Origin: Macrostomum lignano
Taxonomy: Eukaryota
Reading direction: 5' to 3'
DNA: 64,000 nucleotides
Assembly: GCA_002269645.1 (NCBI GenBank)
Contig: NIVC01003058.1
Span: 58,317 to 122,316 of the forward strand
The position numbers and the translations under genes were made by a program. This document shows, piece after piece, positions 52,593-64,000 of the stretch (positions within the stretch are counted from its first letter, which is position 1; every line of letters begins with the position of its first letter). The notes below the pieces were generated by a model. The model was not told where the DNA came from. It did no database searches and worked only from the letters and a program-made list of their open reading frames with translations.

Positions 52593-54716
52593 CTAGCTGC
52601 AGTCAACAGATGAGATTCGGACCTCCCCATTCATCATCGAGTTTCCTCCGGCCACGCCGTTGCAGTCGGTGCCGAAGCAAGCAGAGCCGCCGCCTCCACC
52701 GGCGCATTCCGAGACGGCACCGGCGCCGCCGCCGCTGTAGCCGCCGCCGCCGCCGCTGCCGCCGAAGTAGGCGTCAGCTCCATAATTGATCATTGAGCCC
52801 CTGGCGCCGCCGCCGCCTCCACCGAAGCCGCCGTCGCCGGTAGCCATCGTGTCACCGCGGACGCCGCCCAGCCACCCGCCGACGCGGCTGAAGCCTCCGG
52901 TGCCGTCGGTGGGGTAGAGGCCGGTGTTGGAGACCGCGCTGCCGTTCCAGCCGGCGCCGGGGCCGCCCGGGCTGTGCCGATTGTCCGGGTTGCCATAACG
53001 CGACGGGGCCACCCTGCCCGGCTCGCCCCCGTTGCCTCCAAGTCCCTTGTAGTCATTTGATTGGTAATATGAAGAGTCGAATCCATAGCCCACAGTCATA
53101 GCCCACAGAATTGCCGTTCACACCTGAAAGGTTTTAGGGAATGTTTAAATATTGTTAAGCCAATTAAATAAAGACAATTGCACAGAACTAATGTTGACTC
53201 AAAGAAGTTTCCAGCTCGTTCACACAACCATCAAGTGGGACCAAATTTCGAGTGATCAAATTTTGATGCCTTCGTAGACTTTGATGGTTCACTTGATGGC
53301 AGTGTGAATTGAACCTTTAGAAGTGACGATAAATACAGACTCCCGTACTGCGAGGTACAAAGGTACTTCGGTTCTGAATTTATACGAAAGTTTAGTGTTG
53401 ATCCTTTGCATGTCACCAGAATAAATTAGGAAGCCACTGCCGCAGATTCAAGGCGACAGTCGACCGGCCCAAACCCGAACCTTTCCAACGTTGTCAGGCC
53501 CGAGAATTTCTGTCAGCCTGTTCGCTGCAGGGCGAGCGACCATCCACCTCCTGGACTCTCCGAGGGGGACCACCGGATCTCCGGATCTCCCTGCGCGACA
53601 CCGCAGCACCAGCTGCCCGTGGTCGCCAGGGGTTAGCGACGCCTCCTTGCTGTATCCGGATGCCCGGAGCCCCTTGCAGCTGAGTCAAATAAGACTCTCT
53701 CATTGTTAGGGTTGGCCCTGTGGGTTTGAATCGCACTGCATCAAACCCACAGGGCATGCATGAACTACTGCATCACCTGCAAATCTTACCGATTGCATCG
53801 TACGAAGCTCCGCCGCCTCCGCCAGCAGCGATGAGCAGCTGGTTGTCGCTGCTCTTGTACACGAAGCTGCCACCGCCGCCGCCCGAGCCGGCGTACTTTG
53901 CAGCCGACTGTTGGCCCGCCTGGCCAACAACGATGGCCAGATCGGTTTCGGCAGTCAGGCTGAAGGTTCCAGCGATGGAGGCGCCTTTGCCGGGATTCTT
54001 TGTTGCGCTGTAGTCCCAGCCGCCTCTGGCTCCCAAGACTTCGATGCGGTAGCAGCCGGTTCTCCTGATGCTAAGAGCTTGGATGGAGCCGTCCTTTCCG
54101 GAGCCCGTGGCTGTATTTAAAAGTTTACATTATTATTCGCAGGAGGACTGTACATAGACATCGGTCCCACAACCAGCGCTGAGGCAGTTGTGCCCATTCC
54201 GCTGACTTCTGTCTGAGCATATAAAAAGCGCGCCAATACTGTACGCAGGCACGAACTCACGCACACGGTCCCTTAATTGGGAATTTAGTAGTCCCTGATA
54301 CATGCCAACACTAAAAACTTACCGGTAAAGGTGACTCTCATCTTTCTCTCTTGCAGCAACCTGGAAAAGTCTGGCAGAGTCCAGATTTTGACTCCATTAC
54401 CGCTTTGAAACTCCCTGCGCTGGTGCCTCTCGGTCGGCTGCAGCTGACCATTTGATTCGTCATCAACGAAGATAAAATCGCAGGTAAATTGACTGTCGCT
54501 TTTACTCTTAGCAACCACTGCGTCGCATTGTTTCTCCTGGCATTTTACAGCGCAGTGAATGTCGCTGCGAGCATCGGCATCAATTAGCATCCGTGTGCTG
54601 TGAGCTTCCGTGATGTTGATGGAGCTCGCAACCTCGTAATTAATCTGACAGTTGATTGGGATCGCAAAAGCTGCAATGAACAGTTTTCTGGCAATACAAA
54701 CTCGTCGGATAAACTG
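52593..54716 (-). CDS. Secreted-type PAN/apple + ALK/LTK glycine-rich domain protein without kinase (frameshifted in exon 3, possible pseudogene)
   Basis: Exons ~54716-54323, 54110-53790 and 53123-52593, with GTAAG donors and phase-1 junctions. PAN-like HCAVKCQEKQC...TCDF. Glycine-rich domain motifs: TGCYRIEVLGARGG, GTFSL...[54 protein letters not shown]. Confidence 0.75.
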
Positions 54717-55116
54717 CTGTTTCAGTGGATGATGTCAGAAAAACATTTAAAAAACGAGGCAACAGAAGCGACGCAATGTCGGATGGGCTTACCAAGAATT
54801 GAGCAAAGAACAGTTACTACCGTCTTAGTTGCGAGAGCAGTCATTTTGAATTCTTGCGTTTGAGCAGCTTTCTTTGTTTTAATTCCCAAACGTTGCTATC
54901 TGTGGAGTAGATTTGAGCCATAAATTTTATTAGCGCATTTTTATACGTTCAGCCACCCCTTAAACCATAAGCAAGTATGCGTGGGTAGGCCAATTGTCAT
55001 CTACATGCAAGCGGCAGTTAGCTAATGCGTCTGCCCAGTTTTTTTCTGTTGCTAAGAGCAACGAGCGTACGTGCATACCGCTGCAGTTGGTTGCAGACAT
55101 GTACAGACCATATATT

Positions 55117-57332
55117 TGATGTAACCACGCTCTGGTCGCGGGATAGGGCATGGGAACTTTTTCGAAAGTGCCTCCTATCCCGTGCACCCTCTGCACAGAG
55201 CTGTCGAGACTCGGCCAGGTCTCCGACCGGGCCTGGAGACTCCCGCTCTGCTGCACCCCTCCTGCTGCCTTGGTCCCGTCTCTCCTGCCGCCACACCTGC
55301 CTTTCCGGAGCCCCTACCCCTTTCTGTACCTCCCCCTCTACCCTATCTCTTCTGTTCCCGCCCTATTCTTCCTGTACTTTCTCTACCTCCTCCTTTTTTT
55401 TGTCTCCCTCTGCACTCTTTTCCTGCGCTGTCCCCTCTTTCCCTGTGTCTACTTACAGTACGTTGTGTGCTCACCGTCTCCCCATCCCCTCTCAAACTCC
55501 CAAACGGTGACGCAAGTCGTGTGACCCCTTCTCCCCCTCGGTGACTCATCGATGACTCATCCCCCTCTCTTGCGCAACCTTTTCTCACGCTATTGTTCTC
55601 CTTCCCAAATTTCTCATGTGACACCCACCCCACCTCCGCTTCTATTGTTCTCGTTTTTGCTTCTTTTGTTCTCTCGACCCCCACCAATTATCACATTTTC
55701 TCCGATTTTCTCTTTCTTTTGTTCTCGTTTTCGCACCTAATTATCACCTTTTCTCCAATGTTTACTTTTCCATTGTTCTCAGTTTTCCCCAATTATCCCC
55801 GATTTCCAATTCCTTTGTTCTCGACCCCAGCCCTATTGTTCTCAATGTTTGCTTGCGCAACACTTTCGCGACCACCCGCGCGCCAATTATCCCCCCACCC
55901 CACCTCCGGATTGCGCAATTTCCCGATTTCTCATGTTGCTATGCCGGTCTCATGCTTCTCATCATGACTCATTCTGACGTCATTCTGCCGGCAGCCAATC
56001 AGAGAGAGGGAGCCATGGTAACGACCTTGAGGAGGCGGCTGTGAGGTCTATAAAAGGAAGCGATTTCGGCATGAGAATACTCAACTGAGTTTATCTCTGT
56101 TCCTCTCCTCGTCCTTCTTTGGACTTGCTGTCAGATTGAGCTCTGACCCATTCGTCTATAAGACGAATCCCTGCCGGTCCGCGGTCTGTTACCGCCAAGT
56201 TATCCTTAGCTCCCCAAGTGAGCTCGCCTATCGGCCAGCGGTCTGATACCGCCCAGCATCATCAGCATCGCCTGATCTACATCAGCGCCTCGTCGCTCCA
56301 GCGCATCGCCGCTTCACCGTCTGCCTGACTGCAGCCTACAGCCGCCCTCGGTCACTCCGCCTCTCTCTCTCTCTGTGCAGCTGCCGGTAAGTTCCTGCTA
56401 CTAATTTGTGCTCTAATTGCCTTTGCTTATCCGGGGTTTGCCTATTTTCCATTGTCTGATTAGAGAGCAGAGCCAATTGTGATACCGTATCTTTTGCTGT
56501 ATTTTACTCAATAGTGAAGCCGCCTAATTGCCTGCTTATTTGCCTAAGGGCCTAATTATTAGCTATTAACTAACTTCATCATTATTCAATCTTTCACCAT
56601 CATTTCACTCATGGCGTGCTAAGCCTTTCTCCCGGGGTGGCAAAGCATAAGGAAGTTTGGGTAAGCTAATGGCCTCTCCCCGTGCAAAGCCCGCCTGTGA
56701 GTGCGTGCTGCGGGGCCGCGTGTGCGTGCAGTAGAGGGATTAGCGAGTCTTGGCACAGAATGGCAGTAGGAAAGGTTGCAACCCCATGCTAACGCGTCCC
56801 TTCGCCCTGAGCAATCTAAACTGTAGACAGTACATGTTCGCCTCATACTACTCTTAGTAATCAAAGTCGCAAGCAGCCTCGCTCACAGCCACAAAGGATC
56901 CCCTGCTGAGAAATCCTCCAGGATTGAGCCCAGAGTTCCCGATCATGCCCCAAGCAGAGTCCCTGTACTCGGCTGCATGCGTCTCCCCTGTTAGCCTAAA
57001 TCCCCTGGTAACCAATCCAGGCGGGGCTCTAGCCTCGAGAGGTCTGGTAGAAAGATCCAGGTGCGCCAGGTCACATAGAGTGGTGGCAGCCACTCGGTCA
57101 TACCATGACCGAGTGACCAACTATTGCACCTTGGCTACAGGTGGGGTCCATGTGGGTCCTTGGCCCTCTGGTCACGAAGCGCTACCAAAGCTACTAATCA
57201 TGTGGGCGGGACAGTCTGGTGCTGGAGGTCCGTCAGGTCATTGCCCGGTCATAGGCAGCCTACGGTCATTGCCCCTCTAGCCATGCGTTCGTCTCTCTAC
57301 GGAGCGGACAGGCGACAAGGGCGGTTACATCA
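55117..57332 (+). mobile_element. 5' LTR (2216 bp) of a Ty3/gypsy-type retrotransposon
   Basis: TG...CA ends with perfect 10-bp inverted termini TGATGTAACC (55117-55126) and GGTTACATCA (57323-57332); PBS 3 nt downstream; internal CCAAT and TATA boxes. Confidence 0.85.
55542..56055 (+). promoter_or_regulatory. LTR U3 enhancer/promoter
   Basis: TGACTCA x3 (55542, 55553, 55965), TTGCGCAA x3 (55570, 55853, 55911), TGACGTCA (55975), CCAAT (55995), TATAAAA (56049), TTGTTCTC x7. Confidence 0.7.
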
Positions 57333-57335
57333 AAA

Positions 57336-57353
57336 TGGTGGCAGCGGTGGGAT
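57336..57353 (+). other. Primer-binding site complementary to tRNA-Leu 3' end
   Basis: TGGTGGCAGCGGTGGGAT is the reverse complement of ATCCCACCGCTGCCA-CCA, the 3' end of animal tRNA-Leu(AAG/TAG) as I recall it (18/18). Confidence 0.9.
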
Positions 57354-59704
57354 CTGGTGCAAACAGCGCTGAGTTTCGGACTGGTGGTTTAGATGTGACA
57401 AGCGCACCTGTGGCATCCCTCAGAATGGTGGCCGAAGCGCAAAGAGTGCCATGTCTAAATCTACCAATCGTAAAAATCGCCAATCGTCATTCTCTTCTCC
57501 CATGGCGTGAGGCAACAAAATCCAAAAAATATTAATGTAACTTTTCAAATTTTTCGGGCTGCGAATTCGTTCAATTCATTCGAAATTTCCAAATTCATTC
57601 ATTCGCCAAAAGCCCCTGATTCAATTTAAAATTAATTTAGCCGATCAGTTTCAGCGCTAGAAAGTGTGAAGTGGTAGACGAGCGGATTTGATTACAATCA
57701 GAATAGCTACCTGGTAACGGAGTGTGTGAAGAACTGCGAAAGTGAATTTTCCGGACTCACTTTCTATTTCATGGTAATATGCTTTATTTCCCCTCCCTTT
57801 CTTTCTCTCGCCTAGCCTACAGCAGAACTGTGTGAGTGTTGAGGTGGACAGCCAGCCAGGTACGGAAGCCTCATCACGCAAGCACAGGGAAGCTGGAAGC
57901 GAAGCATTTCTTTCCTTTGTCCTACCTCTTTCTTTTACTCGGGGGAGTGTAACAGTCGCTCTCCCTGATCGCTCAGTTAATCCTAGAAATGCGTAGAGAC
58001 CGGAGCGTGTTTTGTTTGTCCATTAGAATGAACAGCTATCAAGGGCTATGGGGAACTCGCTATATATGCATAGTAAGGGAAGCAGTAGTCATGGCCTTGG
58101 AAACATTGGGGGATACCAAAGTCTCGCAGGAATGGGAATAGCGGTGTGATTGTATCTCTGTAGGGTATCAGTGTGACTCAAAAATCTCGGGCTAAAAAAA
58201 GTGTCACCTCCTATGGAATACCTGCGATCAGCCCGGACCTGAATTCTGCGGTAACCCCTGGTGCCTTCATGGCTGGGATTCGATCCCAACGTGTCTGCTG
58301 ACTCTCCCCACTGTATTGCAGACCCGGTAGTAACTGCTTTGGTTGCATTTGGGCTGGTGCAGTGGCTGGAAATAGTAGATCCCATAGTATCCTATTGATA
58401 GTGGAGTTCAGTGAGTATTGGAATGGTGTACTGGAAGTCTGGTGGCCCCCAGTGATCTCGTAATGTTTCCTGCTGCATTCTCCTCCTTTAGTAATTCCTC
58501 CCCCCTGCTGTCAGTCTGATAGGGGAGGTGGGTGTGCCAATCAGCCCGACCCGGTAGAACGGCGCTCCTGCCCGACTTGTCAGCCTGGCCCAGGAAGGCG
58601 CTATTGCGCAACTCTTTTCCCCTCTGGCCACTGCAGCCCACTAAGCGCTTAGACGCAGGGTTGCATGCAGTCCCCTAATGTAAAGCCCCGGTACATAGAG
58701 TGCCACCCCAGTGCCCCGCAAGGTCAATAAGACGGGTTGACGTCTCTGGCAACTTGGAATAACCTAGATGGAGGTACCGCTGTCTCCTGGTAGAACCGGG
58801 CGTTCAAGTACAGTAAAGTGGAGAGGCTGACAACTGTAGGACTTTCTCCGCCATCAGATAAAGGTCCCAAGTATGCTATTTCGAGCTGCAGCAAAGGTGG
58901 AGTATCGGAGGGCAAGCATTTCAGGAAGATACTCACTTAGGTCTGTTTATCCTAGGAAAGCGGGCGAGAGTTTCAGGCTTGTAATCCGCCTAACCTGAAA
59001 ACTTCGGGGACAGTTTAGTCTGGACTCCCGCTGCGCGCCTTCGCTCTGAACAGAAGGGGGAGGTCTTGGTTTTTGTGGATTCTGCTAGACGTAGGGGAGC
59101 TGGATTCCCGCCTTTTGTGAAGCTGCGTGTACAAGATTGGTAGTCCTGAGGTGGAAGCCCCACTGGACTCCGACGGTTTTCCGGCTGTGCAAGGGCAGTA
59201 AAGTGGGAGGACCTCCATGGGGATTGCTCCCGCCACTTGGGTTTTTGGGTCCAGGCGCCAACGCTTCTTCGTAGTAGCTTTCTTAAGGAAATGGGGTCCG
59301 GCGCGCAACCCTAGGGGAGAATTTGTACAGGTGCCGTAAGTCCGTTTACGGTCGGCATTTGGGTTCCCTAGCATGGCCGCAAAATGAAGGTCAAGTCTCT
59401 CTGAATAGCCAATTTTTCCCTGTCAGGATGTGCCATAGACAACTGGTAGTGGTAGCCGCAGTTTGAGTCAGTGTGCTTTGCCGAGTGAAGCCGTTAGGAC
59501 TGCCTAACTGGAATTATGTGGAGCCACCCGTTTTTCAATTTGTTTTCTTCGACGCCGCAAGTGTGTGAGTTTTGTCTGTGTTTGTGTGTGTGTGAGTGTG
59601 TTTGTGTGTTTCGGATCAACTTTTCGGTCTTTACCTGTAGTTGCCCCGGTTTTCTTTTCTTTTCCTTCCCGGTGTGGGTACTCCCCCAGCTATCCGGCAT
59701 TCAC

Positions 59705-61150
59705 ATGTCACGGGCGCGTGGAGATAGGGTCGTAGAAGCTGTGTGCGCAGACGCCCCTGGTCAACCACCCTCGGCCGCTGACACCCCAGCAGTTGCCGCC
59801 CCCGCAGCCGCAATGGCCGCAGCCGCTGGTAACCAGGTCCCTCAGCCTCCAGAAGCAGTAGTAGTTGAGGAACCAGATGAAGGAGTAGCAGCTCCCGCTC
59901 CCAATCAGGGTGGCGCAGCAGCCGCCGCTGCTCCCCCGGACGCAGCCCAGAATCCTCCTCAGGCAGTCCCGCAGCTAGGAGACTTAGTTGCCGCTATAGC
60001 CAATGCGTTTAACCAGCTAAACATGGGCCAAGACGCCCAGAGGCCGAAAATCTACGTAGAAAAGTTCTCTCCCGGCGAACACTGTTTTGTGCAATGGGTA
60101 GAGAGAATGATCTACAAGCTGGACGCGGAGAGAACTGTAGGAGATCAGGCTAGGAAGCAGGTGCTCATCTCGCACCTCCCAGGTGAATTTCAGAACTTAG
60201 CCTTAGGATTGGACGGGCAATTGCCCTTTGAGCAGTTCGTATCTAGATTAGGAGAGCAGTTGGGCGAGGCCAACACTGATCTGGCTAAGAGAAATAAGCT
60301 GAAGAATCTGAGCCAGAAACCCGGCCAATCACATAGTGCTTTTGCTGCTATGATAAGATCTCAGATAACGGCCATGTTTCCTCAGATTCAGGGTGAGCAG
60401 AGAGAACAAGAAATCGTGTACACCTACTTGGAACACGCTAAGCTCCCCCGCCAGGTCAGACAAGATCTGTTGAGCCGTCGCTGGCAGACAATTGAGCAGG
60501 TGTTAGAACAGCAGCAAGCCCTGTTAGAAGCCGCAGACTTAGCCGGGAAATGGGACAGTAGTGGCCCGCCCAGGTCTGAGTCCCGCACCGAAGTCCGTCT
60601 GCAACCTCAGCAGCCACCCAGGCCCCCTCGCAAGTGGGTCAGGATGGTGAACCAGGAAGCTGACGAGACGGAGGAGGACGGTGACGGCCTATCAGAGATG
60701 CAAGAGAGGTTGGGCGCGCTAGAGCAAACGCAAAAGGATCTGCGCAACCAGCTGGTGCAGCTCAATGAAACTATGAAGGCGACAGCAGAGTCTGTTGCCC
60801 AGCTGCCCCAGCAGATGAGGCCCCCTCGCCCCGCCACTCCCAACAGGAACTGGAGGCAGGGGCAGGGCGGCTCTAATAGCAGTAGGAACTGGCGCCAACC
60901 CCAGCCCCCGCCGCTTGCAATTCAGGAGGCGCCCACGCCGCCGGCGCCGGGTGTGCAGCAGCAGCAATTGCAGCTTCGTGCGCCACCTGATCGCCATAGG
61001 CAAGATTTAGAGGAGTGGGGCAGAGATATGTTAGACGAGGCTACCAGGGAGAGGCAGGAGAGGCTCGCCCAGCTGCGCGCGCAAGCTCTGATGCCTCCTC
61101 CTTCCACGCCTGAAGAGCCCCCGGGTTCGGGAAACCCGTGGGAGGGCTGA
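59705..61150 (+). CDS. Retrotransposon Gag (Ty3/gypsy capsid-like), 481 aa, no CCHC knuckle
   Basis: ATG 59705. Capsid-type segments KFSPGEHCFVQWVERM...RKQVLISHLPG and LKNLSQKPGQSHSAF; coiled coil LSEMQERLGALEQ; downstream of LTR and PBS. Confidence 0.8.
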   Translation: MSRARGDRVVEAVCADAPGQPPSAADTPAVAAPAAAMAAAAGNQVPQPPEAVVVEEPDEGVAAPAPNQGGAAAAAAPPDAAQNPPQAVPQLGDLVAAIANAFNQLNMGQDAQRPKIYVEKFSPGEHCFVQWVERMIYKLDAERTVGDQARKQVLISHLPGEFQNLALGLDGQLPFEQFVSRLGEQLGEANTDLAKRNKLKNLSQKPGQSHSAFAAMIRSQITAMFPQIQGEQREQEIVYTYLEHAKLPRQVRQDLLSRRWQTIEQVLEQQQALLEAADLAGKWDSSGPPRSESRTEVRLQPQQPPRPPRKWVRMVNQEADETEEDGDGLSEMQERLGALEQTQKDLRNQLVQLNETMKATAESVAQLPQQMRPPRPATPNRNWRQGQGGSNSSRNWRQPQPPPLAIQEAPTPPAPGVQQQQLQLRAPPDRHRQDLEEWGRDMLDEATRERQERLAQLRAQALMPPPSTPEEPPGSGNPWEG

Positions 61151-61191
61151 ATGGCCCGGCCCGAACTCAGCCCCGTTCCCTCTCTAGGGCC
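61129..61191 (+). other. -1 programmed ribosomal frameshift signal
   Basis: G GGA AAC slippery heptamer in gag phase (61129-61135), 8-nt spacer, stem GGGCTGA/TCAGCCC, possible second stem GGCCC/GGGCC. Confidence 0.7.
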
Positions 61192-61289
61192 CAGCTTAAC
61201 CTGCCACGTCCGCCCAGCAAGAAGTTTAGATTTGAGAAGGTACCCGATTTCTATCAGCCAAGACCAGCTGAGGACAACGCGGGAGAGAT

Positions 61290-61652
61290 ATTGTTGTAGA
61301 GTTGCCAATTGAGAATGTTCCCACCCGCCTCCTGGTAGATGGGGGCAGTGCGCTGTCTTTGCTAACAGTCAAAGACTTTACTAAAATTACCGGACAGAGT
61401 GTGGAGGCCCTGGAGCCCCCATGTGTGAAGGCCGTGTCCTACACGGGCAATGAATTAGAGATGCTAGGCCAGGCCACCCTCACAGCAGTTATTGGGCTAG
61501 AAGAGGTGAGAATCCTCTTTCTGGTCGTTGGCAATTCAGCAGCAGTTTCCCTCCTGGGTAGTGCTTTTCTAGCCAGTACGCATGCTATCATAGACTATCG
61601 AACAGAAAAGGTTTACTTGCTAGGTGTGAGTCTCCCATTCGACCCCCGCTGA
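61290..61652 (+). CDS. Retropepsin-type aspartic protease (disconnected from transframe by a 1-nt lesion)
   Basis: IVVELPIENVPTRLLVDGGSALSLL, VSYTGNELEMLGQ, SLLGSAFL and HAIIDY match the retroviral-type protease fold motifs; stop at 61650-61652. Confidence 0.8.
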   Translation: MVVELPIENVPTRLLVDGGSALSLLTVKDFTKITGQSVEALEPPCVKAVSYTGNELEMLGQATLTAVIGLEEVRILFLVVGNSAAVSLLGSAFLASTHAIIDYRTEKVYLLGVSLPFDPR

Positions 61653-62237
61653 GTAACAGATCGGTAGCTAGCCAGTGATTGCTTAATTCCCCCCCCCCGA
61701 TTCGCGTGTCGAAATTTTGCTCGTGTTGCCCCGTTGGAGACCGCTTTTCGCGTATTTACGTATGCCCTCTATTACTCGAATTTATGTTGTGACCTCGTGC
61801 TCGTTGGTGTTGTTTAAATATCTAAGATTTTAGCTCGAAAATTAGGCCCGTACAGTATGCGTTAATTCCCTATCAGTAAATATTAACTTGGAAACTAGTA
61901 AAATTTCTATGGGTCTGCTCCACAGGAGGTCCTGCCCCGCTGTTTAAGATTTTCTGGGAACAATGGAAGTCTGGGACCGTAGGAAATTAGCACCTTTAGG
62001 TCTGATTTCGTGTGTTTGTTCACACTTTGTGAAAGTCCGATTTTGGGAAACTTTTAATTGGTTTCGATGAGGCAATAGGGGGCATTCAATGTAATTAAGT
62101 TTATCAGGCAAATGGGGCAGCAATTAGTTTAGAGTAGGCCAGTGGTTTAGTCAATGTAAAGTCAGGTAAGTAATTAAAGTCAAGTTATGGGGACAGATAG
62201 TTCAGAATTAGTAAGTAAGCATTAAGAACCACCAGCA

Positions 62238-62644
62238 TCAGCAGTTGGGAAGCCGCAGAAATAGCTCCAAGAGCAGTAGCCAGTGCATTGTGAGACCGGC
62301 TATTAGGGCCGTCGACAGCACGACCAAATGCCAGGAGCCGTCGGTCTCCACCACAGGGGTTGGCAAGGGCTGTGGAGCGGCAGCCACGGGCGTCACCGCG
62401 GCGACCGGCGGCGGAGCGTGCGCTCGGGCTGACAACGGCGGTGGTACCGGATGCCAACCGGCCCCGGACGCTGGTTCGCTGGCGGCCCGGCGGTCGCATG
62501 GCCCGGGAGCCGCGGCGCCTATGTCACCAGATGGCGCAGCCGGCCCAGAATCAGAGGGGGCGTCCGGCTCTGAATGGCTGTCTTCGGGCGCTTCGTAGTC
62601 GGACTCCTCTTCAAGGATGGGCTCGGCTACTAGCGGCCGGAATC
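62238..62644 (-). CDS. Antisense exon encoding an acidic/Pro/Ala-rich segment with a C-terminal hydrophobic helix
   Basis: Strong minus-strand acceptor (polypyrimidine + TTTTCAG ending at 62645). Frame open for ~135 codons: PLVAEPILEEESDYEAPED...WHLVVLSTALIAGLTMHWLLLLELFLRLPNC*. No ATG upstream of the hydrophobic segment. Confidence 0.45.
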
Positions 62645-64000
62645 CTGAAAATGAGAATTTAAGGGATGAAATAGAAGTAGGGAACTAGCCGGGTATTAGG
62701 ATGTAGATAGATGGGGATTTTAACTTTATGGCGTGTGAGTGGCCTTCCTGGGGGTTTCTTCCTTTCTTCATTCCCTCTCCTTCTCTTGAGCTCTAGGTGA
62801 TCAAGTAGTGGTAGCCTTCTTCCCCGCCTTCTTTTAATGATACACCTCTAAGTGATGGCAGTTTTTCGTCTTCCTCTCCTCTGGTAGAAGGCAAATGGTG
62901 GCAGTTTTCCTAGCAACCTCTCTCAAAATGGTGGCTGATCCTCCTTTTCTTTTCTTTGTAATGCGCCAAGGTGGTGGTAGGTTCCCCTTTCTCTTTTATA
63001 ATAGTACATCAAACTGGTGGCAGTCAAATTAATGATTAATTCCTCTTTCAAACTCTTTCGGCTGTTAAGTTTTTGAGGGTTTCGGAGATGTGAATGAGGC
63101 CTGTGTGTGTGTTTCTGTGTGTGCCACTATTTTTAATTTCACTATTTTTCTAATAAAAACTTGTTTTTCTAATATGCCACCTTTTACTAATAATATACGA
63201 GTCTTTGTTGTGCGTCAATCAAATTCATAAAATAAGTCTGTGTTGGCCTCTCACTCTTAGTACCGTAAGAAAAGACATATTGTATACTACAGTTGGCTCA
63301 GTTTAATATGAAAGGCATGACGAAGTGGGTGGATTTCGTTTAACGTATAGGCGAAAGGAAATCAGGTTGGTGATGGGACTTACCGAGTAGTTGTATAGTT
63401 TGGAAAATCGCGCTGAGTGCCTTGGTTGGAAACTGCGACTCCGTGTAGGTTGCAGGCAGCCGGCTCCCGTTATCAGTGGCGCCTTTTATACAGTGGCCAG
63501 CGCACGGCGCGGCGCCTCCCAGCCTACAACCGATCGCCCCGAAGCCCTCTGACTGGCTGAAGCGGGGTCCGAGCCTTCAAGGACGCTAGGCCTCCGTGCG
63601 GTTGAACTCCCGGCGAAATTAGCTTATTAATTTACTGCGCTGCATTAGTATTTTTCCCCTGTGTAATCGTCATTCTCCCCGAGGCTCTGCCCTTGGCTGT
63701 GTGCTAGCAACCCTTCCCCCCCTTCTTTTTCCCCACTTCCCTCACCCTTCCCCGTTTCCTCTCTTTCCCAGCTGCGCTTCTATCCAATTATGATAATTTA
63801 TTGTTGACAATTCGCTATTTTCTCCCTACTATTGCGCTGTCTGTGTTTCCCCCCTCCCACTTTAGCCACCAAACAGTTGAAAAAATTCTGTATTGCACTC
63901 AACCTATGTATCTCGTTTTGTGAATTTATTGCTATCCCTCTATTTTCGCGCCTTTTTCCATTCCCGCTCGCGGTTTGTTAATTCTGTGATTTCACGTTCG

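Follow-up and report, generated by a model that had tools for sequence, protein, structure and literature searches.

An array of LTR-end/PBS junction copies in the 3' non-coding region of a Macrostomum lignano Ty3/gypsy element, probably a relic of junction duplication

In Macrostomum lignano, a young LTR element of the Ty3/gypsy type carries, within its 3' non-coding part, an array of short copies of its own LTR-end/PBS junction (62797..63023, plus strand), each composed of CA, 2-3 nt and the first 9 nt of the primer binding site (PBS) for tRNA-Leu. On balance, we lean towards reading this array as a relic of junction duplication and not as a working primer site. All coordinates refer to the window, the 64,000-nt stretch of DNA that was analysed. 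An earlier note on this DNA had described six PBS-like motifs here; the motifs, their spacings (47, 43, 33, 43 and 43 nt) and the pyrimidine-rich character of the spacers were recovered where it had placed them.

The host element begins with a 2.2-kb 5' LTR (55117..57332, plus strand; TGATGTAA...TTACATCA); its 3' LTR is expected about 86 nt past the window end, and LTR pairs in other copies show 98.7-99.9% identity. It has the LTR, PBS and purine tract of a Ty3/gypsy LTR retrotransposon, and the RT-RNase H-integrase order is seen in a partner that shares its LTR. The window-type element itself codes for Gag and protease only: a gag-like ORF (59708..61150, plus strand) shares 24-26% identity with the ORFs that occupy the Gag position in full gypsy elements of the same genome, with no Pfam family at the cut-off, and is followed by an aspartic protease ORF (61272..61652, plus strand; PF13975, E=0.008, under the curated cut-off), downstream of which no RT, RNase H or integrase was found in the window element. 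Exons of a host gene with an ALK/LTK glycine-rich domain (PF12810) adjoin the insertion on the minus strand (52593-54129). Tandem copies that apparently share one LTR were seen elsewhere (G000:C4958, and C254 just 5' of the LTR), and some copies carry a 2-kb insert (L090 7414-8760; C151, C1545) in which a sense ORF of 449 aa follows the array, and an ORF of a related family (family B) looks similar to it by eye. The main text of a paper on the LTR elements of M. lignano is silent on PBS, protease, antisense and non-autonomous elements in the parts available (PMC12801592).

The true PBS (57336-57353, plus strand) is an exact 18-nt complement of the 3' end of the host tRNA-Leu(AAG/TAG), and with only 3 nt (AAA) between it and the LTR end at 57332 it has both the LTR-adjacent position and the 18-nt tRNA complementarity of a canonical PBS. 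Behind it, in the interval 57354-57400, lies a second tRNA-pairing box (57374-57386, plus strand), a 13-nt exact complement of tRNA-Leu(AAG) nt 39-51 with a duplex energy of -39.7 kcal/mol that none of 200 shuffles equalled; judged from its sequence, this box is likely part of a multipartite 5' PBS. Family B and the short-LTR elements C545 and C16 showed no such extended tRNA box beside the PBS. The leader also contains two 10-nt tRNA-Leu complements (anticodon arm and T arm) within 26 nt at 58258-58283, for which the chance expectation in the region is about 0.5. Single copies of the array motif occur outside the array as well: one exact TGGTGGCAG in U5 (57081..57089, plus strand), 255 nt 5' of the PBS, and one sequence match with a single mismatch in the leader (57426..57434, plus strand). 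A sister long-LTR family likewise has one exact TGGTGGCAG at -239/-240, placing the U5 copy 239-256 nt before the PBS in both long-LTR families.

The array comprises six units in the window and eight in most copies, with the pattern CA, 2-3 nt, TGGTGRYAG and a pyrimidine tract. With at most one mismatch to TGGTGGCAG, five array motifs lie inside 227 nt; in 300 mononucleotide shuffles of the stretch the count of such motifs had a mean of 0.01 and a maximum of 1, and elsewhere in the window the best cluster contains two motifs. The motif cluster is therefore beyond chance. Its last unit (63005-63023, plus strand) matches the LTR-end/PBS junction (57326-57344; family D4) at 18 of 19 nt, as the earlier note had reported, with a composition-free chance of about 3e-6 over the 6.7-kb internal region, and has 55 exact occurrences genome-wide. 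In a consensus built from 19 units of three diverged copies, which share descent, A(-3), T1, T4 and G5 are constant throughout, and 17 units show the make-up of an LTR-end/PBS junction duplicate, with the LTR-terminal CA 2-3 nt 5' of the motif, the family spacer and the PBS start. PBS positions 11, 12, 14 and 15 are matched by none of the 19. Because likeness to the PBS stops at base 9 and reaches 5' into the LTR end, of which 7-10 nt are present, the unit is a short junction copy and not a PBS alone; the proposed kinship of the motifs with the PBS was thus borne out and takes in the LTR end too. The units neither lie directly 3' of an LTR nor offer the complement of up to 18 nt by which a canonical PBS is recognised.

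Several other identities for the array were rejected. Protein coding was ruled out by shifting motif frames and by stops in all six frames, and an antisense frame from the ATG of the last unit by its length, which takes 16 values across 53 of the 55 copies, and by the intronic position of the region. A structured RNA was ruled out as well, since neither strand folds as well as its shuffles (z=+2.6 and +2.05), and no Rfam match was obtained over 55100-64000 at E<=1.

Variation among copies was followed in an alignment of 55 copies, from which 8 of 63 stretches had been dropped for want of an anchor and two duplicate loci excluded beforehand. The count of six given in the earlier note is right for the window but not for the family: 43 of the 55 aligned copies have eight units, through an extra 75-nt unit pair, making six the minority form. 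Two older copies (82-87% identical) have six and five units in other arrangements, and unit number across copies ranges from five to eight. The last units are deleted in two copies, with the deletion starting within a core; in L117 and L118, an apparent PBS-like unit of 12 nt was traced to the junction of a deletion and discarded. The last unit of the young copies and that of the older copy L120 are each one base off the true junction, at different bases, for which a perfect ancestor is the simplest reading.

The earlier note had named the conservation of motifs relative to spacers as a check on its proposal, and the outcome was divided. Among 53 young copies, shared variants fall at 6 of 72 motif sites and 12 of 229 spacer sites (p=0.39), so that motifs are no more conserved than spacers, whereas against the two older copies 8 of 81 motif sites differ compared with 32 of 157 spacer sites (p=0.045). 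Divergence from the older copies was nevertheless 9.9% for motifs, 11.5-13% for the flank and 8-10.5% for the exon; motifs therefore look like background and spacers look fast. Within the young copies the whole array is less variable than its surroundings, with 5-8% of sites varying versus 15% in the flank and 22% in the exon. Comparison of paralogous units gave 79% identity for cores, 64% for spacers and 55% for shuffles, a difference that is not ascertainment alone, since the motif is defined externally by the PBS. Changes were also enriched where G-U pairing with the tRNA survives (7/38 vs 8/133, p=0.04, the units not being independent). Taken together, the evidence for selection on the array is mixed and weak, and selection on its cores is weak at most.

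The relatives of the element provide a broader context for the array. The RT-bearing partner has the same LTR, leader and last 0.8 kb but no array (3/3 copies examined), which indicates that the array is dispensable. Family B, whose Gag is 47% identical and whose DNA shows no likeness beyond the PBS, has no array at the matching position; it has a single 3' copy of the junction, exact over 14 nt (CATCAAATGGTGGC) and with the 2-nt spacer of that family, present in 9 of the 14 stretches examined, decayed in two (C380 and L129) and not found in three, and occurring in both element types. In short-LTR Leu-primed families (L139-L168; C545, C16, C590, C886, C269, C390), U5 ends in 50-nt cassettes of old PBS plus LTR end, one to four per end, each a degenerate PBS, about 25 nt and an LTR end. 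These units were found in 26 of 30 loci in the orders X, XZ, XYZ, YZX, WXZ, XWY, XYW and XWYZ, and which cassette supplies the LTR end varies from copy to copy. Cassette X agrees over its first 9 nt with a second tRNA-like 3' end in the genome. An extra junction copy in the LTR was present in 9/9 Leu-primed elements and 0/8 elements with other primers, a comparison set in which 3/10 elements of one scan were dropped for lack of an LTR pair and one pair is doubtful. The Leu-primed clade thus habitually duplicates its junction. The array was not shown to co-vary with another primer tRNA, the eight non-Leu elements having no junction copies.

These observations would be consistent with an origin in which template switching by RT copied one LTR-end/PBS junction into the 3' region, duplication of units amplified the array, and slippage between near-identical cores still adds and removes units, while priming would remain at the 5' PBS and the adjoining second box and the array would be intronic on an antisense RNA. 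The junction-like units, their variable number, the lack of an array in the RT partner and the junction copies of sister families all count in favour of such a relic. Against it stand the retention of cores above spacers between units, the lower variation of the array than of flank and exon, the bias of changes toward positions that tolerate G-U pairing, and template switching that left no direct trace; the distribution of junction copies between Leu-primed and other elements is likewise not explained by a purely mechanical origin. For Tf1 and HIV-1, cDNA is reported to be able to recombine at its PBS ends through short homology (PMC11042837). Here, units are gained and lost at cores, yet no LTR end was found joined to an array-type unit. 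No integrated copy ended at the junction mimic either, all 52 places with the upstream 17-mer holding the full mimic, and from these two results priming or strand transfer at the array left no trace.

The RNA evidence consists of unstranded contigs of eight runs, none recorded as RNA and some guessed to be RNA. A strong plus-strand acceptor before the first motif had led to the proposal that the array is exonic in a spliced RNA. The CTCTAG acceptor-like site stands as sequence, ending at 62796, but its use was not observed: no splice joint or listed loose end at 62797 occurs in the eight runs, in contigs that cannot prove absence, and contigs run unspliced across 62797 and cover the array. The one splice seen to span the array is antisense, with the array inside its intron. 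It joins onto position 62644, with canonical ends, in three runs from two studies, at an exon (62238..62644, minus strand; acceptor TTTCAG| at 62645) whose limit at 62238 is an open-frame end. Loose ends at 62645 were found in runs X1 and X10, and a CT..AC joint over 978 nt in X11, from copy L090. The antisense junction derives from insert-bearing copies, and the window copy is without the middle exon. The donor GTAAGT (63378..63384, minus strand) is used in copies with the 2-kb insert, with a loose end at 63383 in X10, and a TATA-like box (63484..63490, minus strand) would mark the antisense promoter if its sequence is a guide. This spliced unit (62238-62644 and 63378-63490, minus strand) is partly common to both element types and might act as a regulatory RNA or encode a small protein. 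In copies with the 2-kb insert, which the window copy lacks, an antisense exon overlaps the 449-aa ORF. Among the splices listed for contigs of the eight runs, none started in the donor region of the LTR and none ran straight from 63384 to 62644. A strong donor-like site in the LTR (56387) and an acceptor-like site before gag (59691) would splice out the PBS; no joint between them is listed in the contigs.

Other explanations of the array turn mainly on how its units could pair with tRNA-Leu. The cores might be selected low-affinity docking sites on genomic RNA for the tRNA-Leu 3' end or a briefly extended primer, helping the Gag+protease element to collect primer and partner-supplied RT, a possibility we consider open to argument but unlikely. 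Two window units pair exactly with the tRNA over 9 nt (-16 kcal/mol) and the others over 7-8 nt, relatives' working PBSs match tRNA-Leu exactly over just 11-13 nt or so, changes show the weak G-U bias, the region is less folded than shuffles (z=+2.6), and the array is confined to the Gag+protease type, with about 55 copies against 10 of the RT type. However, duplexes with the 18-nt tRNA 3' fragment reach -39 kcal/mol for the PBS and -12 to -19 kcal/mol for array units, the best of which merely attain the first percentile of background (-18.9), and motif unpaired probabilities of 0.32-0.49 straddle the mean of 0.44. Cores are also conserved no better than flanks, a longer and better-binding match is absent from all units, and the family B copy occurs in both element types and has decayed in some young copies. 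Alternatively, and quite improbably in our estimation, the array could be a multimerised site on DNA, recognised by a host protein with a second target at the LTR/PBS boundary, and would then work as an enhancer or insulator placed between gag-protease, the accessory gene promoter and the antisense unit. The conserved bases do extend 5' of the tRNA-pairable part (A-3 in 19/19 units, A-2 in 16/19), and in insert-bearing copies the array lies about 400 nt before CCAAT- and TATA-like boxes recognised by eye. The Su(Hw) insulator of gypsy, a short repeated core with low-complexity variable spacers in a retroelement non-coding region, has the same build as these cores with variable spacers at 33-47 nt, but the core of the window array is a PBS-junction copy. 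The CA-TGG gap of 2 or 3 nt and the variable base -1 (A in 9/19) fit neither the YY1 core nor an E-box, the motifs used for comparison, and nothing comparable lies at the matching position in family B.

The function proposed by the earlier note, a plus-strand spliced RNA whose exonic array would soak up 3' fragments of tRNA-Leu (3'-tRFs) or serve as the 3' half of a bipartite PBS, now appears very improbable, even with a good acceptor-like sequence ending at 62796 and coverage of the array by contigs from runs guessed to be RNA. The observed splice places the array in an antisense intron. No unit has a tRF seed match, the PBS half read by the tRF 5' seed being absent, and neither extensive nor seed complementarity to an 18-22 nt 3'-tRF was found; binding energies are half that of the PBS or less. 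The sponge proposal is weakened by this and not killed, since 3'-tRF repression may be seed-independent according to the accessible part of a preprint (PMC12853362). As to a bipartite PBS, the units are complementary to tRNA nt 75-83 only, with no other tRNA-Leu match of at least 9 nt within the array, and thus address the same tRNA segment as the PBS, which is itself a full 18 nt with its extra box beside it; in Ty3 and gypsy, by contrast, the 3' site binds a different region of the tRNA, as far as the portions consulted of both reports describe (PMC5371799, PMC1635307). Least credible of all is an ordinary decayed minisatellite with a chance likeness to the PBS. Minisatellites abound in the genome, TGGTGGCAG also occurs in an unrelated 54-nt satellite, and a two-motif pattern search returned mostly unrelated satellite among the matches listed (100 of 410). 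The junction match of the last unit (p of about 3e-6), a second, independent 18/19 match in L120 and the junction copies in sister families largely refute this reading on sequence grounds.

Extra tRNA sites and PBS duplications are already known from other elements. Sequence complementary to tRNA also occurs in the 3' part of Ty3 and Drosophila gypsy RNA, and the gypsy 3' PBS is dispensable for cDNA synthesis, in the sections seen of the two sources (PMC5371799, PMC1635307). There, however, a single site pairs with the TPsiC, D or anticodon arm, whereas the array offers six to eight sites for the same acceptor end, includes the LTR end and coexists with a complete 5' PBS. HIV-1 isolates of the MAL type resemble it in that a partial PBS duplicate persists in a replicating lineage, but theirs is one 23-nt insertion right behind the PBS, to judge from the available part of the report (PMC3185550), and the array is multi-unit and 5.5 kb away. 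A further likeness lies within the same genome, where the short-LTR U5 cassettes are also tandem modules of LTR end and PBS, with a period of about 50 nt and diverged spacers. The cassettes differ in lying in or beside the LTR and in mostly keeping part of the PBS 3' half, while the window array sits inside the element, close to its 3' end, and is truncated to 9 nt. Our literature search, of limited coverage, returned no report describing LTR-end/PBS junctions in a 3' array, U5 cassettes in shuffled order, or protease and RT split between elements.

Such a split was observed alongside the array. Two families seem divided between elements with a Gag-like protein, RT, RNase H and integrase and no protease motif, and elements with Gag and protease only (G000:C936, C2925, C2803, L050-L055, L091; C3095, C1757, L082-L083, L092, L187-L188; window 59708-61652), the halves sharing LTR and leader and the RT type being present in 10 and 2 copies. 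No protease motif was found in the RT-bearing partners examined, which suggests two-component families, as far as their sequences indicate. Identity is 54-57% between the pol proteins and 47% between the Gags, and the protease/RT split therefore looks old. Partner-dependent elements with Gag and protease only are known from wheat, where RLG_Sabrina_SA needs a partner for RT and integrase and the Cereba/Quinta pair is comparable; their partners are described as fully autonomous in the excerpts consulted, while the RT-bearing partners here show no protease motif (PMC9744471, PMC11302176).

A bolder reading would join these observations. The RT-less half may have amplified its own initiation junction as a docking array that captures tRNA-Leu or early initiation complexes, out-replicating its partner by about 5:1, with the shuffled U5 cassettes of the clade recording past primer sites; we regard this as distinctly unlikely. 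The mutual dependence of the halves that it entails, Gag and protease on one side and a Gag-like protein, RT and integrase without protease on the other, is equally speculative. Under the preferred reading of the array as a relic, the LTR-end/PBS junction, commonly taken to be one fixed site, would often be duplicated and rearranged, which would bear on the movement of LTR ends and the growth of LTRs. If the cores were instead selected, they would give a dependent element a means of competing for primer and RT. Independently of either reading, the apparent split between protease and RT in two families is a lead of its own. The array, although probably a relic, thus opens two better questions for this clade of M. 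lignano elements: the shuffled U5 cassettes and the apparent division of protease and RT between partners.
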